64,000 bases of DNA, from assembly GCA_009845425.1 (NCBI GenBank), contig VXZQ01000004.1, forward strand, positions 140,585-204,584, given 5' to 3'. The DNA is from Holophagales bacterium. Lineage in GTDB: Bacteria > Acidobacteriota > Thermoanaerobaculia > Multivoradales > Multivoraceae. The notes under the pieces were generated by a model. The model was not told where the DNA came from. It searched no databases and saw nothing but the letters and a program-made list of their open reading frames with translations. Position numbers and translations under genes: made by a program. This document shows, piece after piece, positions 14,899 through 48,900 of this stretch (position 1 is its first letter; each line of letters begins with the position of its first letter).

Positions 14899-14913
14899 AA
14901 GGTGGCAATACTG

Positions 14914-15873
14914 TCATAACTGCCCCGAACCTGCAGCCTGCGCGTGCTCCTCGCGCAGGTCGATCCCCGGCGGCGGCGCCATCGGCGTCCGGAGACCCTC
15001 GATCACGCCGCGGAGCTTGGCGATGACGGCGCCCTGGTTGCCGCGGACGAGTTCGCGAAAGAAGGCCAGGAAGAGGCCTGCCGAGAGAAACAGGAGGAAC
15101 GAGCACCATTGCGCCGGCCCACCGTAGCGGCGCACGAACAGGGCGGCGCTGCGGCCGTTGAAGAACGTCCGCGAGGCCCGGTAGCCGCCGACCGTCCGGG
15201 CCACCATGTGGTACAGCACGGCCCGGTGCGCGTAGTAGCAGCGGTAGCCGCGCTCCTTCATCCGCATGCACCAGTCCGCGTCGTCGAGCGCGAGGTGGAA
15301 CAGCGGATCCCAGAGGCCGATCTCCTCGACGACGCTCCGGCGCACCAGCATGGCGCAGCCGTTCACGTAGGGCACTTCCTCGTCTCGGTCGTATTGGCCG
15401 CGATCGACCTGGCCTTCGCCCCGCTCGCGGGTCATCGACTCGCGAAAGCGAATGCGGCCGCCGGTGGACCACAGCCGGTCGCGCTCCCCGTGGTAGAGGA
15501 TCTTCGGACCCACGCAGCCGATGCCGGGATCCGCCTCGGCTACCGCGACGAGTTCGTCGAGGAAGTCCGGCTCGACTTCGATGTCGTTGTTGAGCAACAG
15601 GAGGTAGTCCACGCCGCGGTCGACGGCAAGTTCGATCCCCTTGTTCATGCCGTAGACGACGCCCTGGTTTTCCTCCACCCGGATCTGGGTCACACCTGGA
15701 TGCGCGGCAGCGACCGCCTCGGACGAGCCGTCGCTGGAGCCGTTGTCGATGTGGATCAACTCGCAGGCGGGATAGGTCATCGCTTCGAGGCTCGCCAACG
15801 CCTGCAGCGTGATGTCGCGTCCGTTGTAGTTCAGGACGAGGGCGGCGACGGTTGGTGCTCCCTGTCCAGCCAC
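14914..15873 (-). CDS. Family 2 glycosyltransferase.
   Basis: VAALVLNYNGRDITLQALASL...IHIDNGSSDGS...LLLNNDIEV is a GT-A fold signature. Confidence 0.85.
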   Translation of the reverse strand: MAGQGAPTVAALVLNYNGRDITLQALASLEAMTYPACELIHIDNGSSDGSSEAVAAAHPGVTQIRVEENQGVVYGMNKGIELAVDRGVDYLLLLNNDIEVEPDFLDELVAVAEADPGIGCVGPKILYHGERDRLWSTGGRIRFRESMTRERGEGQVDRGQYDRDEEVPYVNGCAMLVRRSVVEEIGLWDPLFHLALDDADWCMRMKERGYRCYYAHRAVLYHMVARTVGGYRASRTFFNGRSAALFVRRYGGPAQWCSFLLFLSAGLFLAFFRELVRGNQGAVIAKLRGVIEGLRTPMAPPPGIDLREEHAQAAGSGQL

Positions 15874-25857: not shown

Positions 25858-25894
25858 CTTCGTTCGAGGTTTCTTCGAGATTCGTTCCGGATGC

Positions 25895-27334
25895 TCAGCC
25901 GAGCAGGCTCTTCGCCCGCTGCGCCGCCCTGATTCCGCCGCCGATCGCGCCGTCGATGAATCCGCGCCAGCCTTCCCCGTGGTCGCCCGAGCCGAACAGG
26001 ATGCGGCCACGATCCCGCTGGAACTCGTCGTAGTGGCGAGTGACCCAGCCGGGCCGGTAGACGGCCCAGGTGCCACGCGAGTACGGGTCGCCGTTCCAGT
26101 CGTGGCTCATGCTGCCGATCAGCTCCGCGCGCGGGACGTGAGCCCGCAGCGCCCGCTGCACCGCGTCGCCGTCGTTCACGTCGAGGTCGGCGGGGTCCTT
26201 GCCGAACGCCACCAGCAGCGTGTAGTTCGCGGCCTGCTTGTAGGTCATCACGCAGTCGATCGGCTCGCCGATCGCGTAGGTGGCGACATTGCCGACATCG
26301 CCTTCGACCTTGAGCAGGAGCTTGAAGCCGGCGCCGGCGTGGCGCTGCCGGCCCGCCTCGACCACCCCGGCGGCGAGCGGGGGGTCGAAGGCGACGTCCG
26401 CGATCGTGTTCATCGGCAGGCAGCAGATGACGGCCCGGCACTGGATCTCCTCGCCCGCGCCGGTGACCACGACGGCCCCGTCGCCGCGGTCGCGGATGGA
26501 CTCGACGGGCGTCTCGAGTCTCGCCTCGAGTCCCGCGTCGTCAACCATCGCCTGGAGCAGGGCCCGCGTGCCGCGCTTGAGCTTGAAGCGCGCGACGGAG
26601 TCCTCCACCGTCGGCAGGAAGCCGCCCCCGGCTAGGTGCCAGCGCATCAGCTCCAGGTAGGACATCGTCTCCGGCTGGCCGTTCGCCATGATCGCGATGA
26701 CGGCTCGCAGGTAGCTCCGCTGGAGGGACGAGAGCTCGAGCCGCTCGATGTGGTCCGTCGCGCTGATCCGGTCCGCGGCGAGCGCGGCGTCGCGGTTGTG
26801 GAGGATGTCCCACGCCCGCGGAACGATCCGTCGCGCCTCCGCGTGGTAGAGCCGCCAGGCCTCGTACGTCTCGGCGTACCGGGCCTCCGTCAGCCGGATG
26901 CGCTCGCCGTCCGCGATCAGGTAGCCGGTATCCGCCACCGCCCCGGGGGTCTGCTCGATCTCCAGGCCGTAGCGTTCATTCTCGGCCCAGACGAAGGGCT
27001 GGGTGTGGTGGATCCAGGTGCCCCCGAGTTCGACCTGGTCGCCGTCGAAGTCGGCGGTCCAGGTGCGGCCGCCGAGCCGGTCGCGCGCTTCGAGCAGCAG
27101 CGTCGAGTAGCCGTTCTTCATCGAATCGCGCGCGGCGGCGACACCGGCGAAGCCACCGCCGACCACCACGACATCGACGTCGTGCCCGCGAACGGCGGAC
27201 CGGCGGCGCGTGGAAGCGGCGGCGGCAGCGCTTGCCAGGACTGCCTTCCCCGCGAACAGCGATGACACCCCGACGACGAACTGCCGGCGACTGGCGGTTG
27301 CGCTTGCCAAGTTCGGCGCCACGGTTGGAGTCAT
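25895..27334 (-). CDS. Flavin-containing amine oxidase, Tat-exported.
   Basis: The ATG at 27332-27334 gives MTPTVAPNLASATASRRQFVVG (a Tat motif), then DVVVVGGGFAGVAAARD...LLLEARDRLGGRTW, an amine-oxidase FAD fold. The rest of the 935-aa track ORF is antisense to the neighbouring gene. Confidence 0.8.
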   Translation of the reverse strand: MTPTVAPNLASATASRRQFVVGVSSLFAGKAVLASAAAAASTRRRSAVRGHDVDVVVVGGGFAGVAAARDSMKNGYSTLLLEARDRLGGRTWTADFDGDQVELGGTWIHHTQPFVWAENERYGLEIEQTPGAVADTGYLIADGERIRLTEARYAETYEAWRLYHAEARRIVPRAWDILHNRDAALAADRISATDHIERLELSSLQRSYLRAVIAIMANGQPETMSYLELMRWHLAGGGFLPTVEDSVARFKLKRGTRALLQAMVDDAGLEARLETPVESIRDRGDGAVVVTGAGEEIQCRAVICCLPMNTIADVAFDPPLAAGVVEAGRQRHAGAGFKLLLKVEGDVGNVATYAIGEPIDCVMTYKQAANYTLLVAFGKDPADLDVNDGDAVQRALRAHVPRAELIGSMSHDWNGDPYSRGTWAVYRPGWVTRHYDEFQRDRGRILFGSGDHGEGWRGFIDGAIGGGIRAAQRAKSLLG

Positions 27335-29425: not shown

Positions 29426-30883
29426 ATGAACAGTTGGCATGCTACGGGCCTGCAAGCGCTGGCCCTCGTTCCACTTGCAGCGCTGGCCCTGGCGTGCGGC
29501 ACCGGTCCTGAGCCGGCGCTCGAGCCGGCGGCCGAGGCACCGCGACGCGTCTTCCTGATCACGGTCGATACGCTGCGCGCCGATCACCTGGGCTGGCATG
29601 GCTATCCCCGGGACACGAGTCCGCGGCTCGACGAATGGGTCGAGCGGGGAGTCGTCTTCGAGCGGGCGATCGTCCAGTGGCCGAAGACCGGACCGTCCTT
29701 CGCGTCGATGTTCACCAGCCTCTACCCGCACACGACCGGACTGATCAACACGGCCGCGCAGACGATCCCCGACGACTACGTCGCGTTGCCGGCCTGGTTC
29801 CAGGAACGCGGCTTCACGACGGCGGCCGTGATCTCCAACCCGGTGCTGAGCCGGGAACTCGGCTGGGGCCGCGGCTTCGACCGCTACGAGCAGACCTGGG
29901 TAGATCAGGCGACCCTGGACGCCGTCGACGAACTTCCTGTCGAGCAGCGACCGATGGCGTTCCGGCGTCACGTGTGGGCCGACCGCGTGAACGAACTCGC
30001 CCGGCCCCTGCTGGCCTCACTGGTATCCGAGGAGCGGCTGTTCGTCTGGCTGCACTACACCGACCCGCACGTCCCCTACCTGCTCCAGCCCGGCACCCGG
30101 AATCCGTTTCTGGACGACGAACACTATGTCGGCGACGAAATCGTTGACTTGACGGGTGCGGAGGGACGCGCGCTCGGCGACCACCGGGAACTCCGCTACT
30201 ACGTGGCCCAGTACGACGCGAATGTGTGGGTCACGGATCGCGCGATCGGCGCCATGCTGGACGAGATTGCCGCCCTCGGCATGGAGGACGGGAGCCTGTT
30301 CGTGGTGACCGCCGACCACGGCGAGGAACTGAACGAGCACGGGGTGCCTTTCGAACACGGTCCGGTGCCCTACAACAGCAGCGTCCACGTGCCGCTGGTC
30401 CTCGTCGGCGAGCCCTGGGTCGACACGGGCGCACGCGTCGAGCAGCCGGTCGAGTTGATCGGCCTCTTCCCCACCCTGGTCGAGTTGCTGGGAGAACCGA
30501 TGCCCGAGGGCTTCGAGGGCCGCAGCTGGGCACCTCTGCTGCGGGGACAGCTCCAGGCCGACGAAGCCCAGACCGGCGCCGATTCGGATCCGATCGCCTA
30601 CGCCGATGCCGGGGCCTACCAGCGTCACCTGCGGAGCATCCAGGACGGTGAGTGGCAACTCGTCCTGCGTCCGCCGAACCGGGACCATGAGAAGCCGACG
30701 ATCGAGCTCTACCACCTGCCGTCCGACCCGCTGCAACTCAAGGACGTGGCCTCCGAGTTTCCGGATGTCATGGACCGGCTCGGTCGACGCCTGAGCAGAT
30801 GGATCCGCGATTCGCCGCAGAACGTCACGCCGCACACCGAGGCCGCGCGCAAGGCGCTCGAAGCGATGGGCTACCTGGAGTGA
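29426..30883 (+). CDS. Sulfatase-like (alkaline-phosphatase superfamily) lipoprotein hydrolase/transferase. It lacks the formylglycine Cys/Ser-x-P-x-R motif.
   Basis: Lipobox LALAC. VFLITVDTLRADHLG...WPKTGPSFASMFTSLYPHTTG aligns to the sulfatase signature, but with Thr in place of Cys and Phe in place of Arg. ADHGEELNEHG is also present. Confidence 0.75.
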   Translation: MNSWHATGLQALALVPLAALALACGTGPEPALEPAAEAPRRVFLITVDTLRADHLGWHGYPRDTSPRLDEWVERGVVFERAIVQWPKTGPSFASMFTSLYPHTTGLINTAAQTIPDDYVALPAWFQERGFTTAAVISNPVLSRELGWGRGFDRYEQTWVDQATLDAVDELPVEQRPMAFRRHVWADRVNELARPLLASLVSEERLFVWLHYTDPHVPYLLQPGTRNPFLDDEHYVGDEIVDLTGAEGRALGDHRELRYYVAQYDANVWVTDRAIGAMLDEIAALGMEDGSLFVVTADHGEELNEHGVPFEHGPVPYNSSVHVPLVLVGEPWVDTGARVEQPVELIGLFPTLVELLGEPMPEGFEGRSWAPLLRGQLQADEAQTGADSDPIAYADAGAYQRHLRSIQDGEWQLVLRPPNRDHEKPTIELYHLPSDPLQLKDVASEFPDVMDRLGRRLSRWIRDSPQNVTPHTEAARKALEAMGYLE

Positions 30884-31785: not shown

Positions 31786-31795
31786 CCGGTAACCC

Positions 31796-33259
31796 GTGGA
31801 ACAGAGCCCGCACCAAGATCCGGCCGCTCCGGTCGCCGGAGCAAAGCAGCGGCTGCTGCATTCGACGTTCAGTGCGTATGTCACCCTGTTCGTCCGGCTG
31901 ATCATCGCCTTCGGCACCCGGTACGTACTGGCCCGTCTGATCCTGCCCGCGGAACTCGGGATCTACGAGCAGGCGCTACGCGTCGTAGTGCTCCTCTCGG
32001 CCGCCCGCGATCTCGGGCTTACCCACCAGTTGATGCGGGACCCGCGCGAGTCCTACGGCACGGTGCTGGCCTGGAGCGCCGGCGTCGGCACACTGCTGTC
32101 ACTGATCCTCGTCGCCGGCGCTGGCCTCTTCTCCTACGAACCCGACCTGCCCCAGGTGCTGCGGGCCATGTCGGTCTGGATCGTGATCGACGCGGTCATC
32201 ATGGTCTACCGGACGTACTTCGAACGCCGGCTTGTGATCCGCGACATCGCCGGCTTCGAAGTGCTTCGCGCACTGCTGTTCGGTGTCCTGGCAGCTCTGC
32301 TGGCGCTCAACGGCGCAGGAGTCTGGTCGTTCGTCGGCGGCGAACTGGCGTCCTCGGCAGCCTTTGCCCTGTTCCTGCTGTGGCGGGCCCGAGGGCGGAT
32401 TCCCCTGACCCTGGACCCGCGGCGAATCCCCGCCCTGCTGCGGGCGAGCCGCTACCTGTTCGTGGTCTGGGTCGCGTTCCAGGTCTTCAACTACGTCGAC
32501 TACTACATCGTCAGGTACTTCTCGTCGAGCGAGGTCGTCGGCTACTACGCCCAGGCCTACTGGCTCGCCTTCCTGGTTCCGCTCACGCTGACCGTCCGTC
32601 CGCTACTGCCCGCCCTCGTCGAGTTCCGGCATGACAAGGCCGAGTTCGCCGAAACGCTACGTCTCGGAACGCTCGTCTTCCTGTCCGGGATCGTCCTCGC
32701 CGCCTACTTCCTGTTCTTCAACATCGAGAAGGTCGTCCTCCTGCTGTTCGGCGAGGCGTGGACCGAGGTCGGTCCGCTGCTGCGCATCCTGTGCCTGGTA
32801 CCGCTCGTCGATGTCTTCACGACCACCGGCGGCGAGGCGCTCAAGGTGCAGAGGCGGGACCGGCTGTGGCTCACGACCGTGGTCCTGAACATGACGGCCC
32901 TGATCGCCCTCGGCCTCCTCTTCACCTACCAGTGGGGACCGATCGGGATGGCCTGGGCGAACTTCGCCCGTCTCGGAAGCCTGCTCATGCTGATCAAGAT
33001 CTTCGGCATCTTCGCCGGACAGAGACGAAAGCTGGTCCTGAGCCTGGCTCAGGTCTATCTCCTGCCGCTGCCCTTCTTCCTCGCCGCTGCGGCTCTGCTG
33101 CCAGCGGACAGTTGGTCGAGGTTCGTTGCCAGCGCAGCGGCGGCCGGGCTCGGCGCAGGTGCGCTTCTGTTTCGCTTCCTGCCGGACTACCGGCGGTTCT
33201 TCCGCCGGGCGGGGGCGGCGCCGGACGCGGGTAACGCGGACATCGGGACGACCTCGTGA
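31796..33259 (+). CDS. Polysaccharide/oligosaccharide flippase (Wzx-like, MOP superfamily).
   Basis: 487 aa and about 12-14 hydrophobic segments. It sits in a glycan cluster between a GT2 and a GT-C-like protein. Confidence 0.7.
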
Positions 33260-34809
33260 CCGATCGCCGGGCCTTGCGGCTCCTGGGAGCGTCGGTGGCA
33301 GCCCTGCCGCTGCTGACCCTGCTGTTCCTCCCGGTCCGCACGATCGACGACGCCTTCATCACGTTCCGCTACGCCCGCCACCTTGCCGACGGCAACGGCC
33401 TGGTGTTCAACGTCGGCGAGCGCGTAGAAGGGGTCACCAGCCTGTCGTGGACCCTGCTGCTGGCGTTCGTCGAAGCGCTGCGTCTGCCGGTCGAGCCGGC
33501 GGCGTTCGCGCTCGGCGTGTCGTTCGCCCTGCTGGCACTACGCGAGGCATACCTGCTGGGCCGCGGCCTCGGCGCCTCACCGGCAGCCTGTCTGGCCGCG
33601 GTCGCCCTGGTGGCGGTCCATGGCCGTTTCTGGCTCGTCGCCGCCAACGGCCTGGAGGGCGGTCTGTTCGCGTTCCTCGTCGTCCTAGTGGCGCGCAAGA
33701 CCGTCGAGGAAGCCGAGACGAGGCTGATCGGCGCCCTCCTGGGACTGCTCTTCATGACCCGGCCGGAAAGCCTGGTCCTCCTCCCGATCGTTGCCGGCTA
33801 TCAGTTGCTGGGAACGTCCGAATCCGCCGAGAGGACGGAAGCGCGTACCCGAGCCGTCACCCTTTCGGTTGCGGCTCTCGCGATCGTCGGGGCCGTCACG
33901 ATCTGGCGGCTCGGCTACTACGGCGCCCTCCTGCCCAACTCGGTGGCCGCAAAGTCCGCGGTCTCGGCCGGAACCGAGACGCTGCTGGCGAATCTGGTGT
34001 CGGGCCTGTCCTACAGCGTCCGCTTCGAGATCGCGCACGCGCCCCTGATCCTCGGCGCCGCAATCGCACTCATCTTGAGGCCCACGAACCGGGCCCTGTG
34101 GTTCTGCTTGCTGGTCGTCGTGTCGGAGTTGCCGGCAGTGTTCGTGAACGGCGGCGACTGGATGCCCCACTACAGGCTCCTCATGGTCTTCGTACCGGTG
34201 CTGGCGGCCCCGCTGGCCCTCTGCCTCTCGAGTGCGTTCGAGGACTGGGACATGCCGGGCCCCGCCAGACGGCGCTCAGCCTGGGTGCTCGCCGTGCTGT
34301 CCGTGAGCGCCGTCTTCATGCTCAGCCGCAGTCCCTGGCAGACCACACCCGGCCCGCGCTTCACCTTCCATCCGATCACGAGCTGCTACCAGTTCATGGC
34401 GACCCGCCTGAAGCCCCACCTTGCGCCCGGCGACGTCGCCGCCGCCGAAGCGATCGGGCTCTTCGGCTGGATCCTCGACGAAACGACGATCCACGATCCT
34501 CTCGGCCTGACCTCCACTCATCACGCTCGCCACGGCGAGTACCACCTGAACTGGGGCAAGACCGACTACGACCATCTCCACCAGGTCCGCCCCGCGGTCC
34601 TCGTGCTCCACGAGGGCTCGGTGGTGACCCCCGGGAAGATCGACCGCGGCACCGACGGCCACTTCGCCCGCGACTACTCCGCCTGGTTCGTGAGCCAGCA
34701 GCCGCCCTGCGCACCGTACCGGCTCATCGTCTACATCGACAACGAGCGCCTGGAGCACCTTCGCCCGGCGCTCGCCGGCCTGGTCATCGAGCCCCTGCCG
34801 GCCGGGTAG
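33256..34809 (+). CDS. Polytopic membrane protein, GT-C-type glycosyltransferase/polymerase-like.
   Basis: An acidic motif lies right after TM1 ([32 protein letters not shown]), followed by many TM segments and a soluble C-terminal domain. The GTGA overlaps the flippase stop. Confidence 0.5.
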
Positions 34810-35981: not shown

Positions 35982-37365
35982 GTGATCGGCCCCGCGGGAG
36001 TCCTCCAGGAACGTCCGAAGACAACAACGCCGTCCCGAAGCCTCGATCAGACGATCGAGGCCGCCGTGCGCAACCTCCTGAGGAGTCGCAAGGAGGATGG
36101 TCACTGGCGCTTTGAGCTTGAGGGCGACACGATCCTCGAGTCGGAATACGTTCTGCTGCTCTGCTTCCTCGGCCGCGCAGACGATCCGAGAATCGCCGCC
36201 TGCTGCCGGCGCCTGCGCAGGCAACAGCTAGCAACAGGCGGCTGGGCGACCTACCCAGGAGGACGGGTCGACCCAAGCATGTCCGTCAAGGCCTACCTGT
36301 GCCTGAAGCTCGCCGGCAACGACCCGCGTTCGCCGCATATGGCCGCGGCACGCCGCGCGATCCTCGGCGCGGGAGGGCTGCGTGCCTGCAACTCGTACAC
36401 GAAGTTGTACTTGGCGATCTTCGGCCTGTGGCGCTGGCGGCATGCGCCGGCGGTGCCCCCGGAGATGATCCTCCTGCCGCGGTGGTTCTGCTTCAACATC
36501 TACGACATGTCTTCCTGGTTCAAGCTCAACTGCAGGAACTCGAACGGTTCGAGATCGAGGAGGCCGGGGAGATCCGACTCCAGCCTTGCCTGTCGCCGGT
36601 CTGGGACACGACACTGACGGTGAACGCGTTGCTCGATGCCGGTGTGGATGACGGGAAAGCCCCGATTCAGGAAGCTCTGGAGTGGCTGCTGGACCGGGAG
36701 ATCTCGGTCGCGGGCGATTGGCGCCAGAACGCGATGATCGATCCGAGCACGCCGGACATCACCTCTCGAGGCATCCGTGCCCTGCTTGCCGCGGGACTCG
36801 ATCCGCGGGAGGCGCCGGTCAGGAGGGCCGCCGGGTACCTGCTGCGGGAGCAGGAGGAGGACGGAAGCTGGCCCGGACGCTGGGGGGCCAATCACATCTA
36901 CGGGACCGGGCTTTCGCTCCGGGCCTTGGGTGAGCTCGCCGCCGCGGCGACACGCGACCGCTCCGACGCCCTGGCGCGGGCGTTGAGGCGTGGCCGGAGC
37001 TGGCTGCTCCGGGTCCAGAACGGAGACGGCGGGTGGGGCGAGTCGCTCCGTTCCTACGAGGATCCGACCGCCACGGGGGCGGGGACAGCACCGCGTCCCA
37101 GACGGCCTGGGCAATGCTGGGCCTGAGCGCGACCGCCGAAGCGCGGCCGGAACCGCGCGAAGCCGGTCCGGCTCGCTTGGCGTTGGACCGCGTCGCCGCC
37201 TTCCTTCAGGAGCGTCAACGGGAGGACGGTTCCTGGTACGACCATTGGTGGACCGGGGTCGGGTTTCCGGGAGTCTTCTATCTCCGATACCACGGCTACG
37301 CCCAGTACTTTCCGCTCGCGGCGCTCGCTGAGTATCGCCGTCTTCGATCAGGGAGCCGGAGATGA
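35982..37365 (+). pseudogene. shc: Squalene-hopene cyclase remnant: three reading frames, two large internal deletions, and the DxDD catalytic motif absent.
   Basis: - Frame 0 (35982 to about 36510) reads DGHWRFELEGDTILESEYVLLLCFLG...NSYTKLYLAIFG...PPEMILLPRWFCFNIYDMSSW.
- Frame 2 (about 36520 to 37080) reads QPCLSPVWDTTLTVNALLDAG...WLLDREISVAGDW...DGSWPGRWGANHIYGTG...QNGDGGWGES.
- Frame 1 (about 37080 to 37365) reads STASQTAWAMLGL...EDGSWYDHWWTGVGFPGVFYLRYHGYAQYFPLAALAEY.
- The total is about 1.38 kb, against roughly 1.9-2 kb for intact shc genes. Confidence 0.85.
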
Positions 37366-39371
37366 CCATCAGGTTCGCCGAGGAGATTCTCCTGCTCATC
37401 CTCGACGAAGAGCACGGTGATCTGCCGAAGTCCTACTCGGAGCACCTTCTGGACATCGTCGTTGCCGGCGCCGTGTTGATGGACCTGGCGCTGGAAGGAC
37501 GGATCGACACCGACCTCGAGAAACTCGTCCTGGTGGACTCCACGCCTCTTGAGGACGAGCTTCTCGATCCGACCCTGGCGGATGTAGCGACCGGCCCGGG
37601 CGATCGCAACGCGGACTACTGGATCGCGCGTACGGCGGAGCGGGGCAAGGAGATCCGTGAACGCGCGCTTGCCCGCCTGGTCGAGAACGGAATCCTGGAA
37701 ACCGATGCCGGCGGCATGTTCTTTTCGTCCGCCGTCTCCCGTTCCAGGCGCTATCCGACCCGTGACGGGCGCCAGATGGAGGAAGTGCGCCTGCGAATCA
37801 TGCGAGTGCTGTTCAGCGACGAGATACCCGATCCGCGCGATGTCGTGCTCATCTGCCTGAGCGACGCCAGCGGTGTCCTGCGTCGCCTGCTCACGCCGCA
37901 GGAGAGGACCCGGCTGCGGGAACGAATCGAGCAGATCCGGAAGCTTGACCTGATCGGCCGGTTCCTGCTCCCGGCGATTCGCCAGAACCAGCTCGCCGCC
38001 CCGGCGCCGACGGCAGCCCGGCCGCCGAGCGAGATTCCCGAAGTGAAGGGCCTCCCGTTCCTCGGCAGCGCCCTCAGCATGACCGGAGATCTGAGCGTCT
38101 TCTTCGCCCGGCAGTACAGGGAACTGGGCCCCGTCTTTCGCGTGCGCGCCCTGAACCGGCGCCTCCTCGTTCTCGCCGGTCCGGAAGCCGTTCAGTTTCT
38201 TCAACGCCAGGGCAAGGCCCACTTGCGAACCGGCAACGAGTGGTTGCGCTTCAGTTGGGAGATGGGGGCCTCCAAGACGATCATCGCCCAGGAGGGCCCT
38301 CCACACGTCCGCATGCGCAAGACGATGGCCCCGGGCCTTTCGCCCCAGTGCCTCCACGAGCGCATGCCCGACTTCATGCGCATCACCCGAACGGAAATCG
38401 CCGGCTGGCTCCACGGCGGTCCCGTTGCGGCCCGCTCCGCGCTTCAGCGCATGATCACTCGCCAGGCCGGCGCACTGCTGGCCAACCTCGACATGGTCGA
38501 CGGCTCCGACGACCTGGACCGCCTTCTAGGGACGATCCTGGACGTGGAGGTGGCGCGACGACGCCCAAGGTGGTGGCTGAAGCTCCCGCGGGTGTCTCGC
38601 GCTCGAAAGTCCTATCGGGCGCTCTTCGAGGAGATCATGGCAGTGCACGAGCGGCGCAAGCCGTCTGGCGGCCCATCGAACGTCGTGGACGATCTGCTCG
38701 ATCTTCATCGAAGAGACCCTCGGCTGCTCCCCGAAGAGGACCTGCCGGGCGTCGTCGGATCCATCCTCATCGCGGCGCTCCACACGGCAGCGTACACGGT
38801 GGTGTTCGCGCTCTACGAGGCGCTGAAACGCCCGCGGTTCCTGAACGCGATGAGGGCCGAAGCGGACGCCCTGTTCGACAGCGGAGCCGCAGCCGCGCCT
38901 CCACTGTCACGACTTGACGTCACGAACCGCTTCGCGATGGAGACCATGCGGGTGTACTCGATCACGCCCGCGGTGCTGCGTCGTGTAACGAACTCGTTCG
39001 TGTTTGCCGGCCACACGATCCCGGCCGGCGCAGACATCGTGATCGCCTACGGGGCAGCGCACCATCTGCCGGAGCACTTCCCCGATCCGCGGCGTTTCGA
39101 CATCGACCGGTACACGCCGGAGCGGGCGGAGCATCGGGCAGCCGGCGTGTACGTTCCGTTCAGCGCGGGAGCACACAGTTGCCTGGGGAAGGGCCTCGCC
39201 CAGATTCAGATCGCGCTGACCCTTGCGACGATCTTCCATGAGGTCGACCTGGAGATGAGGCCCCCGGGCTACAGGCTGAAGGTCTCCTACGGTCTGTCGC
39301 CCAGGCCGGCCGATTCCTTCAGGTTCGTCGCGCGGCGCAGAAGAGAGAGAGACGCCGCCCTCACCGCCTGA
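37362..39371 (+). CDS. Fusion protein: an N-terminal GPP34/GOLPH3-family domain plus a C-terminal cytochrome P450.
   Basis: - The ORF is a single 669-codon reading frame.
- The N-terminal roughly 205 aa read FAEEILLLILDEEHGDL...VAGAVLMDLALEGRI, which is GPP34-like.
- The P450 part has the ExxR motif (ETMR) and the heme loop FSAGAHSCLGKGLA, with the Cys codon at 39180-39182.
- The ATG overlaps the stop of the shc remnant (ATGA). Confidence 0.8.
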   Translation: MTIRFAEEILLLILDEEHGDLPKSYSEHLLDIVVAGAVLMDLALEGRIDTDLEKLVLVDSTPLEDELLDPTLADVATGPGDRNADYWIARTAERGKEIRERALARLVENGILETDAGGMFFSSAVSRSRRYPTRDGRQMEEVRLRIMRVLFSDEIPDPRDVVLICLSDASGVLRRLLTPQERTRLRERIEQIRKLDLIGRFLLPAIRQNQLAAPAPTAARPPSEIPEVKGLPFLGSALSMTGDLSVFFARQYRELGPVFRVRALNRRLLVLAGPEAVQFLQRQGKAHLRTGNEWLRFSWEMGASKTIIAQEGPPHVRMRKTMAPGLSPQCLHERMPDFMRITRTEIAGWLHGGPVAARSALQRMITRQAGALLANLDMVDGSDDLDRLLGTILDVEVARRRPRWWLKLPRVSRARKSYRALFEEIMAVHERRKPSGGPSNVVDDLLDLHRRDPRLLPEEDLPGVVGSILIAALHTAAYTVVFALYEALKRPRFLNAMRAEADALFDSGAAAAPPLSRLDVTNRFAMETMRVYSITPAVLRRVTNSFVFAGHTIPAGADIVIAYGAAHHLPEHFPDPRRFDIDRYTPERAEHRAAGVYVPFSAGAHSCLGKGLAQIQIALTLATIFHEVDLEMRPPGYRLKVSYGLSPRPADSFRFVARRRRERDAALTA

Positions 39372-39384
39372 GGAGGAGACTCCA

Positions 39385-40569
39385 GTGCCCGGTAAAGACA
39401 AGGTCCTCCCGCACTCGAGCACGATGGCCCCTCCGGGCACATGGCTGCGCCTCCTCTGGGAGAACGGCGGCGCCCCGCCGGCCTACTGGGGCAAGGTGGC
39501 GCGGATCCTCATTCCGACGACGCTGGCTGCTCCTCTACGGATCTTCGAACGACTGCGCTGGGGCGGCGCGGTCGCCCGCGTGGAGATCGACAAACCGCCC
39601 GTCTTCGTGCTCGGCGTTGCCCGCAGCGGCACGACTCATCTGCTCAATCTGATGTCGCAGGATCCCCAGTACGCCTGGATCTCGACCTTTCACGCCGCCG
39701 TGCCGACCTTCTTCCTCACCGGCCGTGGCCGCTTGAAGCGCCTCATGGCCGGACTCGCGCCGGCGACCCGGCCGATGGACAACATGAAGGTGTCCATGGA
39801 CATGCCGGTCGAGGAGGACCTGGCCGTCGCCAATTCGAGTCCTTTCTCTTCCCTCCATGCGCTCTCGTTCCCCCAGCGGGGAGAGTGGTACTTCAACAGG
39901 TACTGCTTCATGCGAGGCCTTTCGGCCAGGGAACTGAAGCAGTGGGAGCGCGTCTACATGGAGGTGCTGCGCAAGGCGACGCTGGACGCCGGCGGGCGGC
40001 GGCTGGTGCTCAAGAGTCCGGCCAACACGGGCCGGATACCTCATCTGCTGCGGCTCTTTCCGGACGCGCGGTTCATCCACATCGTTCGAAATCCGTACGT
40101 GGTCTACGAGTCCCTGGTGCACATGTTCCGTTCGGTCATTCCGATGCACCAGCTTCATTCGATCACCGAGAGAGCTCTGGACGATCTTGCTCTCTTCCTT
40201 CTCCGGGAAACGCTACAGCAGTACTTGAAGGACCGTGCATCCATCCCGAAGGGACAGCTTGCGGAGCTGCGTTTCGAAGATCTGGAGCGGAATCCGCTGT
40301 CGGAGCTCGAGGCCGTCTACGCAACGCTGGACCTGCCGGGCTGGGAGGCGGCGCGGGTCGGGATCGAGAGCTACCTGGATGGACTTGCCGGCTATCAAAA
40401 GAACCGGTACGCCATCGATCCGCGCACGATCGAACGCGTCCAGCGGGAGTGCCGGTTCGCGCTGGACACATGGGAGTACCTGCCGCCCGACCGTCCGTCG
40501 GCCGCGGTGTCCGGAACCTCTACCGGCGCTGTAGCCGCAAGCCGACGACGATCGTGCGGCCCGGCGTGA
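39385..40569 (+). CDS. PAPS-dependent sulfotransferase family protein.
   Basis: A 5'-PSB-like loop (VLGVARSGTTHLLNLM), plus RLVLKSPANTGR and a 3'-PB-like block (IHIVRNPYVVYES). The GTG at 39385 is preceded by GGAGGAG. Confidence 0.75.
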   Translation: MPGKDKVLPHSSTMAPPGTWLRLLWENGGAPPAYWGKVARILIPTTLAAPLRIFERLRWGGAVARVEIDKPPVFVLGVARSGTTHLLNLMSQDPQYAWISTFHAAVPTFFLTGRGRLKRLMAGLAPATRPMDNMKVSMDMPVEEDLAVANSSPFSSLHALSFPQRGEWYFNRYCFMRGLSARELKQWERVYMEVLRKATLDAGGRRLVLKSPANTGRIPHLLRLFPDARFIHIVRNPYVVYESLVHMFRSVIPMHQLHSITERALDDLALFLLRETLQQYLKDRASIPKGQLAELRFEDLERNPLSELEAVYATLDLPGWEAARVGIESYLDGLAGYQKNRYAIDPRTIERVQRECRFALDTWEYLPPDRPSAAVSGTSTGAVAASRRRSCGPA

Positions 40570-42632: not shown

Positions 42633-42775
42633 CGTTCGATGTGTGCTCAGACTCTTGCTTCGGTGATCCTCGTCACGTTGAAGAATCGGGCTGCGAAGGG
42701 GCACCATAGCAGTCTCGCGAGGCGGCCTACAATCACGCGATGCGGAACGCGATAGGTGAGCAACTCTCTCTGCTC

Positions 42776-45700
42776 ATGGACGAGCCCGACGCCGCGTTCC
42801 GCGTCCACGCCTCGCACCGCCTGGAGACGCTGGCAGAGTGGCTCGCCGACGAGATGCGGCGGAATCCCGCCAAGCCACTCGAGCCGGAACGGATCGTCGT
42901 GCCGGACGCCCTGCTCGGCCAGTGGCTGCGGCTGCAACTCGCTACTCGCCTCGGCGTCGCAGCGCACCTGCGGATCGAGCAGCCGGCGCAGTTCGCCTGG
43001 GCGGCGATGCGCGAAGTTCTCCCAGAACTCTCCCAGGAGTCGGTGTTTGGTCCTTCCTACCTGCGTTGGAGGATCTTCGACCGCCTCGGGAACTGGACCG
43101 GAGATGACGAGATCGCCCGCTACCTGACCGACGGCGACGCGCGCAAGCGGTTCGAACTGGCCGACCGGCTTGCCGTCGCCTACGACCGTTGCCGCATCTA
43201 CCGGCCGGACAGCATTCGCGGCTGGCAACAGGGCGCATTCGACTCCTGGCACGCACGCCTTTGGGCCGATCTCGCGGCAGGCGAGGCCCAGCCCCGGCAC
43301 TGGGTCGATGCCATCGACCGCTACCGGGACGCCCTGGCACGGCGCGCGCCGGAGAGTCCCCAGGGAACTCCCCGACACAGGGTGAGCTTCTTCCACGTCG
43401 CCTTGATGTCACCCACCTACGTAGAGATGCTGAAGCTCGCCGCCGGCGCGATGGACGTCGATCTCTACTTGCTCAGTCCTTCGTTCAAGTTCTGGTATGA
43501 CGCCCCCAGACGCGACGACCGCGGCTACTACGAGGAACACGACGACCTGCTCGGCGCCTGGGGTCGGCCGGCGCGCGACCTGCAAACGCTGCTCGCGAGC
43601 GGTCCGGAAACTCCAACCGTCCTGAACCGCCAGCCAGCCGAAGACGCGCCCCTTCCCGCCACCTGTCTGGCCGCCCTGCAGCGCGACATCCTGGACGCCG
43701 CGGCCGCCAGCGAGCCGCCCGAACGGGAACCGCAACGCCGCGACGACTCGATCCAGATCCACGTGTGCCACTCTGCGACCCGCGAAGTCGAAGTCCTGCA
43801 CGACCGGTTGCTCGGAATCTTCGACACTCACCCGGACGTCCAGCCCGCGGACGTGCTGATCCTGACGCCTGACCTCGACACCTACGCACCGCTGGTCGAG
43901 GCTGTCTTCGGCGCAACCGGACCGATCCCTTTCAGCATCGGCAGGCACCGACTGAGGGAGGGCGCGGCGCTCACCGCATTCCTCGACCTGCTAGAGCTGC
44001 CGGGCTCCCGCTACGCGGCGAGCGACGTGCTGGTACCCCTGCTCGCTGTGTCAGTGCGTGCCAGGTTCGGGTTGGCCGACGCCGACCTGGCAGCGATTCG
44101 GGATGCGGTCGCACGGGCCCGGATTCACTGGGGTATCGACGAAGACCACCGAACCGAACTCGGCGTGCCCGCTTCCGCGAGCCACAACTGGAGGCACGGC
44201 CTGAGCCGGCTCATTCTCGGCTATGCGATGGACGAGGGCGACGTGCTGATCGACGACAAGACGCCCTGCGCCCTCGACCGACGCGGGTTTCGCAGGAGTG
44301 CCCACGACTACGAACTCTTGGGGCGCTTTTGCCGCTACTGCGAGCTGGCGTTCGTACTCGACGGATGGATGGAAACCAAGCACACTGCGAGCCAGTGGAC
44401 TGAGCGGCTACGGAGCGAGGTCCTCGACGCGTTCTTCGTCCGCGACAAACGCGCTGGCGCCGAAGGTGCCCGCGAGGTCGACACCGTGGCGCGCCTGATC
44501 GACGCCTTCGAGGAGCAGTGCCAGCGTGCCGAAGCCACCGAGCCGATCGCATTCCCGGTGCTCCGAGACGTGCTGAACGGGCTCGCCGCGGAGGCCGTTC
44601 GGTCCGCGCCGCGCCTCGCGGATGCGGTCACGGTCGCCGGGCTCGCTTCCGGCCAAGTCCTCCCGGCAAAGGTGATCTGCGCCGTCGGCCTGAATGACGG
44701 CGTCTTCCCCAGCAGACCGCGCCTCGCCGCCCTCGACTTCCAAGCCGACCTGTTCGACGGCCCGGCTCGCCAGCCCGGCGACCGCGACCGCCGCGACGAG
44801 GACCGCTTCGCTTTCCTCGAGGCGCTCCTTGGGGCAAGGCGCTGCCTCGTGCTGACCTACACTGGCCGGGATCTCCAGGAAGACAAGCCGATCCCGCCGT
44901 CCGTGGTCGTAAGTGAGCTGGTCCAACGCCTAGCGGAACGCTTCCCGGCAATCAAAGTGGACGACTGGATCCGGCTTCACCCGCTACAGCCATTCAGCCG
45001 CCGCTACTTCCAGGACGATGACATCGACCCGAGCAATGCCTCGGCACTATTCAGCTACTCGCAGCCCATGGCCGCCGCGGCAACGACTCTCTCCTCGCGA
45101 CGCGAGCGGCCAGACCGCTTCCAGGGCGAGGTGGCCGAGAGCAGCCGTCGTAACGGCACCGAGGAACTCGAGCTCGAGGACTTCGTCCGGTTCGCCTTCA
45201 GCCCGTCGAAGGAGTTCGTCCGCAACCGGTTGGATCTGGTCCTCGACACGCGCGAAGACCGCATCGAAGACGACGAAGCTCTCGACCTGAATGCACTGGA
45301 GGTCTGGCGCCTGAAGACCGAGCTAGCGGACCTAGGTGATCTGGAAGACGAGAGGACCCACGACCTGGCCGCGGCTAGGGGCCTGCTGCCGCCCGCGAAC
45401 CTTGGCCGCGTGCAGCACCGCGAATCAGCGGCCCAGGTGCGGAGTCTTCTGCAAGCGATGCAGAGATTCCGGGAACACGAAGAAGCGCCACTCCAGGAAG
45501 TCGACATCGTCGTCCGGGGCGTCCGTCTGGTGGGCGGAGTCGCGCGCTTCCACGATGCGAAGAACGAGCTTCTCTGGTGGCGTATCGGCCGGATCCGCCC
45601 CAAAGATCGACTCGCCGTCTGGCTACGGCTGCTGGCCGCCATCTGCCACCGGAACCGTTCAGCCGCCGCGTACCTGTTCGGCGGCACTACCGAAGTCGAG

Positions 45701-45991
45701 AGCGAGAAGCTCGCCGGCCCCTCCCCGGATGCCGCTAGATCGATGCTCGGGAGGTGGGTCGAAACCTGGCGGGACGGTCAGCGCCGACCGCTGCCCTTCT
45801 TCCCCTCGACCTCCTGGAAGTGGATCGGCACCAAGGAGTCGAGCGCGGCCGCCCTCAAGGACTGGAACGGCGACTTCGGCGAGGGCGGCGACGCTTGTCA
45901 CCGCTTGATCTTCGGCGACGATCCCCTACGCGACCCGTTCGAGTCGCTCGCCCGCGACCTCCTCGGCCCGCTGAAGGAGGCCCGTTCATGA
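42776..45991 (+). CDS. recC: Exodeoxyribonuclease V gamma subunit RecC.
   Basis: About 1070 aa. The N-terminus FRVHASHRLETLAEWL resembles the RecC start LRVYHSNRLDVL. The gene is followed by recB and recD with ATGA overlaps. The ORF track offers an alternative ATG at 42740. Confidence 0.9.
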   Translation: MDEPDAAFRVHASHRLETLAEWLADEMRRNPAKPLEPERIVVPDALLGQWLRLQLATRLGVAAHLRIEQPAQFAWAAMREVLPELSQESVFGPSYLRWRIFDRLGNWTGDDEIARYLTDGDARKRFELADRLAVAYDRCRIYRPDSIRGWQQGAFDSWHARLWADLAAGEAQPRHWVDAIDRYRDALARRAPESPQGTPRHRVSFFHVALMSPTYVEMLKLAAGAMDVDLYLLSPSFKFWYDAPRRDDRGYYEEHDDLLGAWGRPARDLQTLLASGPETPTVLNRQPAEDAPLPATCLAALQRDILDAAAASEPPEREPQRRDDSIQIHVCHSATREVEVLHDRLLGIFDTHPDVQPADVLILTPDLDTYAPLVEAVFGATGPIPFSIGRHRLREGAALTAFLDLLELPGSRYAASDVLVPLLAVSVRARFGLADADLAAIRDAVARARIHWGIDEDHRTELGVPASASHNWRHGLSRLILGYAMDEGDVLIDDKTPCALDRRGFRRSAHDYELLGRFCRYCELAFVLDGWMETKHTASQWTERLRSEVLDAFFVRDKRAGAEGAREVDTVARLIDAFEEQCQRAEATEPIAFPVLRDVLNGLAAEAVRSAPRLADAVTVAGLASGQVLPAKVICAVGLNDGVFPSRPRLAALDFQADLFDGPARQPGDRDRRDEDRFAFLEALLGARRCLVLTYTGRDLQEDKPIPPSVVVSELVQRLAERFPAIKVDDWIRLHPLQPFSRRYFQDDDIDPSNASALFSYSQPMAAAATTLSSRRERPDRFQGEVAESSRRNGTEELELEDFVRFAFSPSKEFVRNRLDLVLDTREDRIEDDEALDLNALEVWRLKTELADLGDLEDERTHDLAAARGLLPPANLGRVQHRESAAQVRSLLQAMQRFREHEEAPLQEVDIVVRGVRLVGGVARFHDAKNELLWWRIGRIRPKDRLAVWLRLLAAICHRNRSAAAYLFGGTTEVESEKLAGPSPDAARSMLGRWVETWRDGQRRPLPFFPSTSWKWIGTKESSAAALKDWNGDFGEGGDACHRLIFGDDPLRDPFESLARDLLGPLKEARS

Positions 45992-48900
45992 CGGTCGGTA
46001 CCGGACGTCGAAGCGCGATGGAAGCCCCGTTGAACGGCGATCTGCTCATCGAAGCGAGCGCAGGCACAGGCAAGACCTATGCGTTGACCACGCTGGTCGC
46101 CCGCCTAATCGTCGAGGCGGAGCGATCCATCGACGAGCTCCTGGTCGTCACCTTCACGATCTCGGCCGCCGGCGAATTACGGGACAGAGTCCGGAAGACT
46201 CTGCACGAGGCGCGAAGAGCTCTCGCCGACCCTCGCGCAGACGCCTCCACTCAAGCCCGCGAGCTGACGGAAAACTGGCGTGGCGCCAGCATCCGGCGCA
46301 CCGACGCAACCGGAAGGCTGACGAGCGCCCTGCGCGACTTCGACCAGGCGAACATCACCACGATCCACGGCTTCTGCCAGCGGGCGTTGATCGAGTTCGC
46401 GCTCCCCGCGGGCATTCCTTTTCGCTTTAGGGTCACCGGCGACGACGCTCTGGGGGTCGCGGCGGCGACTCGCGACTTCTGGCGTCACGGCATGGCGTCC
46501 GTCGAGATGCAACTGCTCGACTACGCCAAGTCGCGGCGCTTCGCCGCCGAGAAGGCGCTCCCGTGGGACGAGAGCGCAACCCAATGGGCCACGAAGCACT
46601 ACGCCAAGCGGAGCGACATCCGAGGGGCCCCTGAACCCGCGAATCGCGACGAAGAGTTGCAGTCGCGACGGGATCGGTGGCTTGCCGAATGCAGGAGCGC
46701 GCAGGCTTTCTGGGGTGACCCGCGGGAACGCGACGCGTTCATCGACGTCGTCCGGCCCGTGAGCGAAGGCCATGCGTCGAAGCACCAGTGGAAGAGCGGC
46801 AAACGGAACGACGCGCAAGCCACGGCGGTCGTCGACGCCTTCGAGGCCGGCGCCCTAAGCGATCTGCCACCGCACTACGCCGGCTCTTTCGGCCGCGAAG
46901 CCCTTGTCGACAGGCTCTACAAGCGGACCCCGCCGCCGGCGACTTCGCTGTTCGACCGTCTCGATCGTCTGGATGAGACCGGCAACGAGTACGGACGCCA
47001 CTGGCTCGCGGACCGGCAACGCAGCCTGCTAGAGAGCGTCCGCGAAACCGTGCACGAGAACGCCTGGGCCCGCCGGCATCTCAGCTTCACCGACCTCCTG
47101 ACCGAGCTGCACCTGGTGCTTCGCGGCGGCTCCGGCGCGCTCCTAGCCGAACGGATCCGCACCCGCTACCCGGTTGCGCTGATTGACGAGTTTCAGGACA
47201 CGGACCGCCTACAGGCGGACATCTTCGAGAAGATCTACCCCAGCGACGACGCCTCGGCAGGAAACCTGTTCGTCGTCGGCGACCCCAAACAGTCCATCTA
47301 CCGTTTCCGCGGCGCTGATGTCTTCGCCTACCTCGACGCCAGGAAGCGTCTGGCCGCCAACCACAAGGAGTTAAAGCTCGATCGGAACTATCGCTCGACT
47401 CCGAAGCTCGTGCGAGCCGTGAACGCCCTGTTCGGAAGGCCCTTTCCGTTCGTCATCAAGGAGTTCACCTTCGAAGCGACCGAGGCGGCCGATCGCGAGC
47501 GCCCCCATCTTGTCCTGCACGGCAATGACCACGATTCCCGACCGTTCCAGATCGAGGCCTACCGCAGACAGGACGGCAAGAAGTGGAACAAGGGACAGCT
47601 TCTCCCCGCGGTAGCCGAGCACACGGCCGATCGAATCGCACGCCTACTCGGCGGGGCGTCTGCTTCACCCGACGGAAACTGTACGGTTGCCGAGATCGTC
47701 TCGAAAGATGGCGCGCAGCCCGTCTCCGAGGGCGACATTGCGGTGCTCGTCCGCACCGGCGAGCAGGGGAAGGGCGTGGCCGAGGCCCTGCGCCAACGCG
47801 GCATCGAGAGCATCGAGATGGGTACCGACAAGGTCTTCGATTCCGACGAAGCGGCTTCCCTCTACCGCCTCCTGTACGCCCTGTGCCTGACCGAATCGGA
47901 GTACAACGCCACCCCGCTGCTGCGAGGCGCGCTGGCGGCCGACCTGTTCGGACTGAACCTAGAGCAGCTCGCCCGACTCCGCGACGACGATGACTTCTGG
48001 ACCGGGTGGCGCCAGAGGGCGTGCGGCCCGGACGGCTGGGCCGAGGTCTGGAGAAAGCGGGGCATCGCGGCTCTGATCCGGCACATCCTCTTCGCCCGGG
48101 AGTCGGACTGCGCTTCTAACCTCCTTCGTTACCCGAACGGGCCGCGCCGGCTGACGAACTACCTACACCTCGCCGATCTTCTCCACGAGGCCGAAACCCG
48201 CCACCGGCCCTCGCGGCATGGCCTCGTCGACTGGTTCCGGCGCTCGCGGGCCGAGCCCAGCGAGGCAGACGAAACGGCGCAGCTTCGCTTGGAGAGCGAC
48301 GAGAGCCTGATCAAGATCGTGACCGTCCATCGAGCGAAGGGACTGGAGTTCGGAATCGTCTTCTACCCTTTCGCCTGGCACAGGCGCCCACTGAAGCGTC
48401 CCGAGGTCGCCGAGTACTTCGACGCCGCCGACCAGACGCCTGTTCTCGATCTGCGCCCATCGAACGAGGCCTGCGATCGCCAGCGCCTCGAGGAACACGC
48501 GGATGAACTGCGCCTTCTGTACGTGGCAGTGACCAGGGCGAAGCACCGCTGCGTCGTGGGTTGGGCACAGGCGAACGACGCTCAGCACGCACCGCTGGCC
48601 TGGCTCCTCCACCGGAACGGAAACAGCGACGGCCAGAACGAAATCGACGCCCTGAACGAGAACGCCGCCAGGGTTGCCAAACTCGACAGCGACGCTTGGT
48701 TGGCCGATGTCCGTCGGTTCGCGAGCCAGGCGCCGGACGCCGTCGCGGTCAGCACGTTTGATCTGGCCCCGCCCGAGGCCGCGGCGTCGCCGCTCCGCCC
48801 CGCAGGCGAGGACGACGGTGAAACCTCCGGAGCACAAGAACTCGGCCGCCGACTGGCTTCCATTCGCCAACGGACCAGCTACTCCGCCCTCGCCAGCGAC

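Follow-up and report, generated by a model that had tools for sequence, protein, structure and literature searches.

A GPP34-cytochrome P450 fusion gene of a Holophagales bacterium, its family in sponge symbionts and its recurrent association with genes for conjugating transferases

Two kinds of bacterial GPP34 protein have been distinguished, a short one and a long one, GPP34_L, the latter consisting of a GPP34 domain and a cytochrome P450 in 656 of 663 cases (98.9%) (Ferreira et al., Microbiome 2025, PMC11706023). According to the same study, GPP34_L is found exclusively in sponge symbionts, of many phyla, occurs in 85.5% of the sponge-associated Acidobacteriota genomes and is expressed in sponge metatranscriptomes, and a stand-alone GPP34 gene of sponge Actinobacteriota usually has a separate P450 gene no more than five genes away. 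Here we analysed a stretch of 64,000 nucleotides from a Holophagales bacterium (contig VXZQ01000004.1, positions 140,585 to 204,584), hereafter the window, in whose numbering all coordinates are given unless they refer to another locus. It carries an open reading frame (ORF) that fuses a GPP34 domain to a P450 and is almost certainly a member of GPP34_L. Its domains and the genes that surround its relatives point to a membrane-tethered lipid hydroxylase that would feed a sulfotransferase, an interpretation that we put at about an even chance. The features of the fusion gene are the following:

37362-39371, plus strand: GPP34-P450 fusion ORF, GPP34_L member, uninterrupted, 669 amino acids, ATG start and TGA stop.
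37377-37976, plus strand: GPP34 (GOLPH3/Vps74-fold) domain, residues 6-205, Pfam PF05719, E 1.3e-38.
37734-37757, plus strand: conserved basic hairpin V125-S-R-S-R-R-Y-P132, preceded by a hydrophobic MFF and carrying a 4-residue insertion with respect to Vps74.
37977-38045, plus strand: flexible Pro/Ala linker, residues 206-228, whose length is conserved.
38046-39263, plus strand: cytochrome P450 domain, residues 229-634, Pfam PF00067, E 2e-48, beginning at the microsomal-type Pro-rich hinge EIPEVKGLPFLG.
38772-38789, plus strand: I-helix motif AALHTA (A471-A476), with His474 (CAC, 38781-38783) in place of the usual Asp/Glu.
38940-38951, plus strand: ExxR motif, E527-T-M-R530, with E527 and R530 invariant in the family alignments.
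39087-39110, plus strand: PERF-type motif P576-RRFDID-R583, with P576, F579, D580, I581 and R583 invariant.
39159-39200, plus strand: heme-thiolate loop FSAGAHSCLGKGLA (F600-...C607-...613), which fits the pattern FxxGxxxCxG from F600 to G609, with Cys607 encoded by TGC at 39180-39182 and with G603, H605 and C607 invariant.

Both domains score far above the Pfam cut-offs (133.5 bits against 29.1 for GPP34 and 165.8 bits against 22.8 for the P450), and no other domain family, including any fused flavin or iron-sulfur electron-transfer domain, was found in the protein with Pfam and NCBIfam. The sequence-only reading of this DNA had proposed a single uninterrupted ORF of 669 codons with a GPP34 domain at about residues 1-205, a Pro/Ala linker and a complete P450, and had placed the ExxR motif (ETMR), the heme loop and its Cys codon; all of these were recovered at the same positions, with every P450 motif present. 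In a search of 5.8 billion proteins both domains were present in all 120 protein clusters listed, at 41-98% identity, and when one genome per species was scanned, 537 fusion loci were located, 79 of which were retrieved. Both domains are maintained by purifying selection: against five relatives, the ratio of non-synonymous to synonymous substitution rates (dN/dS) is 0.06-0.21 in GPP34, the more conserved of the two, and 0.10-0.34 in the P450. The linker, which differs by only a few residues in length across the family alignment, is also under purifying selection against some relatives. Its residues 214-222 form the sole internal stretch of low confidence (predicted local distance difference test, pLDDT, <50) in the AlphaFold model of the whole fusion, which has a mean pLDDT of 87.8 and a predicted TM-score (pTM) of 0.67. 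No second GPP34 or P450 copy was found within the 64-kb window.

The relatives come from a broad range of bacteria. Their metagenome-assembled genomes (MAGs) are labelled as Holophagales, Thermoanaerobaculia, Gemmatimonadota, Binatia, Latescibacterota, Nitrospirales, Spirochaetia, Trueperaceae, Alpha- and Gammaproteobacteria, Rhodothermaceae, Bacteroidota and Chloroflexota, and nearly all retrieved loci bear isolate names of the sponge-microbiome bin type. Closest to the window, and collinear with it, are Acidobacteriota ('Holophagales') MAGs of sponge metagenomes. The fusion protein shares 98-99% identity with proteins from sponge MAGs of the kind that the 2025 study covered, the segment covering the fusion and the downstream sulfotransferase gene shows 93-97% DNA identity to the four closest MAGs, and positions 36725-40512 are 96.7% identical to MAG SB0666_bin_22, with 85-95% for the upstream segments. 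Bins named SB066x have been attributed to Ircinia ramosa (PMC11706023). The GPP34-P450 architecture is already known, and it is neither rare nor undescribed. The pairing had been presented as uncharacterised by the sequence-only reading, which was to be given up if the architecture proved common and already functionally described; it is common and published as GPP34_L, whereas no functional characterisation was found, so that this condition applies only by half.

Several fusion paralogues are present in many genomes, sometimes in tandem and each with its own partner gene. For example, the loci L012 and L015 lie about 14 kb apart on chromosome OZ220688, L064 and L077 are cases of tandem copies, and VXML01 contains three loci. 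Two proteins, P0029 and P0091 (926 and 945 amino acids), have two GPP34 domains ahead of the P450, which may reflect either a true tandem duplication or the merging of genes during annotation. P0032 seemed to be a triple fusion of GPP34, P450 and sulfotransferase; this was rejected, as a frameshift just before the Cys loop (..GVYAPLRRWSAQ..) leads to read-through into the sulfotransferase gene, leaving adjacency only.

The GPP34 domain was studied with a domain-only AlphaFold2 model (pLDDT 88.5, pTM 0.88), an alignment to GOLPH3 and Vps74, and 88 aligned family members. The model confirms the predicted GOLPH3/Vps74 fold, as these two proteins are the only matches in the PDB with E<1e-3 (TM-score by query, TMq, 0.61-0.70, the highest to GOLPH3, at about 20% identity), the next ones having E >1. 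In eukaryotes, this fold is known for membrane and protein-tail binding. The pocket of GOLPH3/Vps74 for phosphatidylinositol 4-phosphate (PI4P) or sulfate, which we take to be formed by W81, R90, R171 and R174 (human numbering), aligns with S26, A35, K96 and R99 of the window protein. Across the family, the W81 position is never Trp (0/88, with Pro, Ser or Ala instead), the R90 position is Ala in 84/88, and the R171 position is Asp, Gly or Glu in 73/88, while Arg is kept at the R174 position in 83/88. As judged from this alignment, three of the four eukaryotic PI4P-pocket residues are not conserved and the pocket is lost. The basic hairpin is far more constant, with V125 and Y131 in 88/88 members, R130 in 87/88 and R127 and R129 in 80/88 each, and a hydrophobic stretch F/L-F/L-S precedes VSRSRRYP in family members. 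The fusion protein begins directly with helix 1 of the GPP34 fold, with no signal peptide and no GOLPH3-type N-terminal extension.

When the whole P450 domain is compared with solved structures, its best sequence match (E 7.5e-35) is the CYP51-ferredoxin fusion of Methylococcus capsulatus, followed by other CYP51s and then by CYP184A1, whose structure among the matches holds a bound oleic acid, CYP170A1 and CYP120A1. A profile built from 22 family members gave the same order, with CYP51 first (E ~1e-54) and taxadiene hydroxylase, CYP3A and CYP46A1 next. The closest solved relatives all act on lipids, terpenoids or steroids. Moreover, a Foldseek comparison of the AlphaFold P450 yielded a TM-score by target (TMt) of 0.85 to the M. 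capsulatus (~24% identity) and human (~20%) CYP51 and of 0.83-0.86 to CYP120A1, with identities of 20-25% across the solved relatives. No NCBIfam equivalog was found for the domain, the best matches being terpenoid oxidases far under their cut-offs. P450 nomenclature requires at least 40% identity for membership in a family. CYP51 membership is ruled out both by the identity of ~24% (20-25% from structures) and by the absence of the B'/B'-C signature YxxFxxPxFGxxVxYD, in place of which the window protein has NEWLRFSWEMGASKTIIAQ, compared with AYRIMTPIFGRGVVFDA in the M. capsulatus CYP51. The domain is best described as a predicted lipid-type, eukaryote-like P450, nearest to CYP51 without being a CYP51.

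The sequence-only reading had also noted that the I-helix AALHTA has a His in place of the acid, which it associated with CYP51. The substitution is real, the usual D/E-T acid-alcohol pair being replaced by H474-T475, and CYP51 is indeed the best solved match. However, His is not a property of the family: among the 88 members the acid position is D in 50, E in 20 and H in 17, with Thr in 88/88, so that most other members have the canonical D/E-T, and the His form is confined to a single Acidobacteriota clade (hereafter the His clade). Relatives in this clade have AGIHTS or GSLHTS; with the CYP51 pattern (A/G)G(Q/H)HTS they and the window protein have H-T in common, but not the rest of the motif. 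CYP51 enzymes are active with H-T in the I-helix, and H474-T475 is therefore no argument for inactivity.

Gene context was analysed across the family, which adds to what the 2025 paper reported (PMC11706023). All ORFs around 80 non-redundant loci were clustered and hidden Markov models were built from the main clusters, with 3-10 kb bins of the same loci, representing many times more sequence, as an internal control. Sulfotransfer_3 genes are the commonest neighbours, adjacent to the fusion (<500 nt, same strand) in 33/80 loci and present once in the 3-10 kb bins. Acyl_transf_3 genes occupy this position in 17/80 loci and are absent from these bins (0), and kinases of the ecdysteroid kinase-like (EcKL)/APH type do so in 14/80, with 2 occurrences in the bins. 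Taken together, a partner of any of these three types is adjacent on the same strand in 64/80 loci, against a total of 3 in the 3-10 kb bins. By average-linkage clustering the fusion proteins fall into five subfamilies, which follow the partner type: the His clade (n=12) is accompanied by a cyclase in 9/12 and a sulfotransferase in 8/12, two D/E clades (n=28 and 7) by a sulfotransferase, the VGLDTT clade (n=14) by Acyl_transf_3 in 12/14, and the fifth clade (n=17) by a kinase in 13/17. The cyclase is a squalene-hopene cyclase, found at <=3 kb in 9/12 His-clade loci and in 0/67 other loci, and the trio of cyclase, fusion and sulfotransferase is retained in L015 despite a rearranged gene order.

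Genes for efflux pumps are frequent in these neighbourhoods. An MFS_1 (major facilitator superfamily) exporter lies next to the kinase in 14/15 EcKL loci, in two gene orders, and ATP-binding cassette (ABC) exporters are present in 13 loci, mostly of the acyltransferase type. RND (resistance-nodulation-division) genes occur at two His-clade relatives (L012, 6263-9877; L016, 7541-13452), with AcrB directly upstream of one, and TolC-like (OEP) and HlyD-type membrane-fusion genes downstream of the other. In addition, PhyH dioxygenases were found in about a dozen loci. The kinase and MFS neighbours were placed by direct BLAST with the corresponding proteins of L057. Across six loci carrying the GPP34-P450/kinase/MFS module (L051, L055, L057, L063, L069 and L070, at ~10000-15100 in each), which belong to Spirochaetia, Alphaproteobacteria, Gammaproteobacteria and Vicinamibacterales, the kinase is 67-82% and the MFS pump 73-78% identical, with 74-82% also recorded for the kinase across these four groups, and such high identity across phyla suggests a recent transfer of whole modules between sponge symbionts. 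Finally, a 275-amino-acid protein encoded downstream of a Gemmatimonadota fusion (L004/L005, 12012-12839) has a weak, sub-threshold match to EXPERA/EBP of the sterol isomerase superfamily (E 1.3e-3), a suggestive hint at possible sterol chemistry.

In the window the fusion gene is flanked on its own strand by remnants of the cyclase gene and by a gene for a sulfotransferase of the type that uses 3'-phosphoadenosine 5'-phosphosulfate (PAPS):

35982-37365, plus strand: squalene-hopene cyclase pseudogene, spread over three frames, whose stop overlaps the fusion start (ATGA, 37362-37365).
39385-40569, plus strand: PAPS-type sulfotransferase (Sulfotransfer_3), Pfam E 2.8e-36, beginning 13 nt past the fusion stop.

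The sulfotransferase gene is preceded by a GGAGGAG ribosome-binding site at 39372-39378 and is likewise under purifying selection (dN/dS). Three deletions have disrupted the cyclase. One of 341 nt (junction 36514-36518) shifts the frame, one of 255 nt (junction 36725-36728) takes out the DCDD catalytic motif, and one of a single nucleotide lies near 37079. Microhomology at the 341-nt and 255-nt junctions amounts to no more than 3-5 nt, which fits genuine deletions better than an assembly collapse. The cyclase is intact in all close relatives (634-661 amino acids, DCDD motif; 595.9 bits for an intact orthologue against the 431.1 cut-off of TIGR01507 hopene_cyclase) except L007, whose different truncation suggests independent decay of the gene within the lineage. 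As the cyclase is dead and the P450 and sulfotransferase are intact, this enzyme pair cannot depend solely on the product of the neighbouring gene; either it acts on something other than the product of the adjacent cyclase, or another cyclase lies elsewhere in the genome.

Microsomal P450s have an N-terminal transmembrane anchor directly upstream of a Pro-rich hinge. In the fusion protein the GPP34 domain may take the place of this anchor, immediately before the Pro-rich hinge (RPPSEIPEVKGLPFLG), and the flexible tether of ~20 residues would keep the lipid-type, CYP51-like P450 at the surface of a membrane or lipid. Contact would probably be made by the hydrophobic and basic hairpin (FFxS..VSRSRRYP), which we prefer to the PI4P pocket because the pocket is not conserved. 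A role in membrane or lipid targeting, already put forward by the sequence-only reading, is still the most plausible one for the GPP34 domain, and we place its specific use as a membrane tether, to which the anatomy of the protein points, just short of an even chance. The P450 would then hydroxylate a lipophilic substrate, probably polycyclic, terpenoid or steroid-like, and the new hydroxyl group could be sulfated by the enzyme encoded 13 nt downstream; in the sister subfamilies the EcKL/APH kinase or the Acyl_transf_3 acyltransferase would be the conjugating enzyme, and the conjugate would commonly be passed to an adjacent efflux pump, giving a sequence of hydroxylation, O-conjugation and export. 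Gene context makes it somewhat probable that the P450 and the conjugating transferase form a functional pair. That the substrate is a terpenoid or steroid is a more tentative proposal, to which the nearest P450 relatives, the cyclase linkage, the ecdysteroid-kinase-like partners and the weak EXPERA/EBP match all point. Hopanoid-type triterpenoids would be the obvious substrate in the His clade, because there the module is linked to a squalene-hopene cyclase. In its widest form, possible but on balance doubtful, the proposal is that cassettes for hydroxylation, O-conjugation with sulfate, phosphate or acyl groups, and export move horizontally between sponge symbionts and act on polycyclic terpenoids or sterols of the host or community, and on hopanoids in the Acidobacteriota clade, with GPP34 as a peripheral membrane anchor and not a PI4P effector; they might then be a bacterial source of the sulfated terpenoids or sterols of sponges.

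Several observations weigh against a membrane-tethered hydroxylase paired with a conjugating enzyme. Membrane binding by the hairpin is putative and derives from sequence features, and the orientation of the GPP34 domain with respect to the P450 is undefined, because the pTM of 0.67 and the disordered linker allow no reliable inter-domain geometry. With only ~24% identity to CYP51, the substrate of the P450 cannot be assigned by homology. No conserved ferredoxin-like ORF is present within 3 kb of the fusion; ferredoxin-motif matches near it were discarded as chance ORFs in GC-rich DNA. The sulfotransferase of the window could serve the envelope genes upstream of the fusion instead of the P450, and Acyl_transf_3 enzymes often acylate extracytoplasmic glycans and not small lipids. 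The dead cyclase in the window and in L007 weakens the hopanoid-specific version of the proposal. Finally, no biochemical characterisation of any GPP34_L member was found in the literature, where the family is covered only by the comparative-genomics paper of 2025.

Other explanations of the fusion have to be weighed against the same evidence. It has been proposed that GPP34_L is a secreted effector, exported into sponge phagocytes, where the GPP34 domain would bind phagosomal PI4P and block maturation, the P450 being accessory (Ferreira et al. 2025, PMC11706023). The restriction of the family to sponge symbionts of many phyla and its expression in hospite are consistent with this (PMC11706023), as are the fold that GPP34 shares with the eukaryotic PI4P adaptor GOLPH3/Vps74 and a P450 of a eukaryote-like class, which could in principle use a host reductase. 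However, of the four residues expected to bind PI4P, three are not kept by the family (for example, R90 to Ala in 84/88, W81 never Trp), and the protein has neither a signal peptide nor the N-terminal extension of GOLPH3. Moreover, the genes that almost always accompany it in the operon encode metabolic enzymes of the cytoplasm or inner membrane (PAPS sulfotransferase, kinase, acyltransferase) together with efflux pumps, no secretion-system genes were seen among the examined neighbours, and a heme enzyme that needs redox partners would be odd cargo. The loss of the pocket, the missing secretion signals and the metabolic partners weaken the effector hypothesis, which we regard as distinctly improbable. 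An artefact, in which an assembly error or the loss of a stop codon united two genes or the P450 is translated from an internal GTG or ATG, is virtually excluded. Contrary to the sequence-only reading, which saw no Met or GTG start near the junction, both V228 (GTG, 38043-38045) and M240 (ATG, 38079-38081) are there. Even so, two separate proteins are not a likely outcome, since all relatives examined retain the fusion: in 85/85 scanned sequences (the window plus 84 loci), which represent more than ten phyla, a single high-scoring segment pair runs end to end, with a similar linker length, and several of these sequences come from complete, chromosome-level assemblies. An assembly join or frameshift is thus ruled out, the ORF itself being free of stops and frameshifts; that the P450 is translated separately is unlikely, as the fusion is family-wide and no Shine-Dalgarno sequence precedes the internal GTG, and the purifying selection on the linker against some relatives also speaks against an artefact.

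Polycyclic terpenoid sulfates have long been known from sponges. The cluster of cyclase, P450 and sulfotransferase could be dedicated to tailoring the symbiont's own triterpenoid, giving a hydroxylated, sulfated hopanoid or a related polycyclic terpenoid sulfate. The linkage of the cyclase in 9/12 members of the His clade, the survival of the trio through rearrangement and the translational coupling of the cyclase stop and the fusion start (ATGA) would agree with this, and so would the bona fide hopene cyclases of the relatives and the CYP51-like His, found only in this clade. A cluster of an SHC-like (squalene-hopene cyclase-like) cyclase, a P450 or FMO (flavin-containing monooxygenase) and a sulfotransferase was moreover predicted to occur in bacteria by a 2017 review, as the source of sponge merotriterpenoid sulfates (PMC5618424). 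Yet the window cyclase is inactivated and that of L007 is independently truncated, with the P450 and sulfotransferase still under purifying selection, the other four subfamilies have no cyclase, and no prenyltransferase or polyprenyl synthase was seen near the fusion in the window gene annotation; we consider a dedicated triterpenoid pathway unlikely. The GPP34 domain might instead be a ligand-handling or regulatory module, similar to a lipid-transfer or carrier protein, that binds the lipid substrate or an anionic sulfate or phosphate ester and presents it to the P450 or gates the enzyme. The stronger conservation of GPP34 than of the P450, the invariant Arg/Tyr cluster, which would suit an anionic ligand, and the members with two GPP34 domains are in line with this, as is the proximity of the stand-alone GPP34 genes of Actinobacteriota to P450 genes (PMC11706023), which suggests a protein-level partnership with no need for a covalent tether. 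However, the ligand pocket is itself only putative, and the flexible linker leaves the model with no defined interface. What the fold does in eukaryotes, moreover, is to bind membranes and protein tails. We judge a ligand module quite unlikely, and continue to prefer a membrane-tethered hydroxylase that acts with a conjugating enzyme.

The remaining genes of the window include, upstream, a set of envelope genes, namely a sulfatase, a family 2 glycosyltransferase (GT2), a flippase and a GT-C-like membrane protein, with a methyltransferase on the other strand, and, downstream, a TonB-dependent receptor and recBCD. The GT-C-like gene (33256-34809, plus strand) encodes a conserved protein of 517 amino acids with no Pfam match and, in NCBIfam, only weak similarity to an arabinofuranosyltransferase of the GT-C type (E 3.5e-10, well short of the cut-off), and is probably a membrane glycosyltransferase of an envelope polysaccharide cluster. 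Between the GT2 and flippase genes, the ~210 nt at 31787-31995 correspond in L001/L002 (3047-3945) to a hicA/hicB toxin-antitoxin pair, a presence/absence polymorphism. The following features appear unrelated to the fusion:

23371-26076, minus strand: DAO and GCV_T domain fusion, similar to dimethylglycine/sarcosine dehydrogenase.
29426-30883, plus strand: sulfatase.
42740-51506, plus strand: complete recC-recB-recD operon.

The GPP34-P450 fusion is already documented as one of the most distinct genetic markers of life inside sponges, and the secreted PI4P effector is the only idea of its function in print. The present evidence suggests a different and directly testable function: the lost PI4P pocket, the lipid-type, CYP51-like P450, the almost constant pairing with a transferase and the frequent presence of an efflux pump suggest a system for the hydroxylation, conjugation and export of lipophiles. 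If this is true, it would explain the strong selection of GPP34_L in sponge symbionts, offer a genetic way of tracing where the sulfated terpenoids and sterols of sponges come from, and represent a new means of attaching a P450 to a membrane.

Compared with known systems, the window protein agrees with GPP34_L in its two Pfam domains, in their order and in its approximate length (~660 amino acids), shows no structural difference and is a member of it; the description of that family did not extend to gene flanks, PI4P-pocket residues, P450 subtype or I-helix variants (PMC11706023). With GOLPH3/Vps74 it shares the fold, including the beta-hairpin and the helix with the R174 equivalent, whereas it is only ~20% identical, has no equivalents of W81, R90 and R171 and no COPI-binding extension, carries a 4-residue basic insertion in the hairpin, and is fused to an enzyme. 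The M. capsulatus CYP51-ferredoxin fusion (PDB 6mcw, 7jj1, 7snm) is the best match of the P450 and has the same N-terminal Pro-rich hinge; the likeness to CYP51 in the His-Thr pair of the I-helix is limited to the His clade, most family members having D/E, and the two proteins differ in the B'C signature and in the partner, which here is N-terminal and not a redox domain. P450 BM3/CYP102, CYP116B and the CYP51-ferredoxin fusion likewise join a P450 to an accessory domain on one polypeptide through a linker, but their partner is C-terminal and serves electron transfer, while the N-terminal domain described here matches no cofactor-binding family, so that the redox partners of the GPP34-P450 proteins must be separate. 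The cluster hypothesised for merotriterpenoid sulfates (Mar Drugs 2017, PMC5618424) has the same three enzyme types that stand side by side in the His clade; here, however, no aromatic prenyltransferase or polyprenyl synthase was seen nearby, and the cyclase is of the ordinary hopene type and a pseudogene in the window. By analogy, microsomal class II P450s also have their accessory element before a Pro-rich hinge, which there is a transmembrane helix and here would be a peripheral folded domain. A further analogy is with phase I/II/III metabolism in animals, in which a P450, a sulfotransferase and an efflux pump act in turn; the gene logic of the bacterial loci is similar, and their operon structure suggests that the three steps may be coupled there as well.

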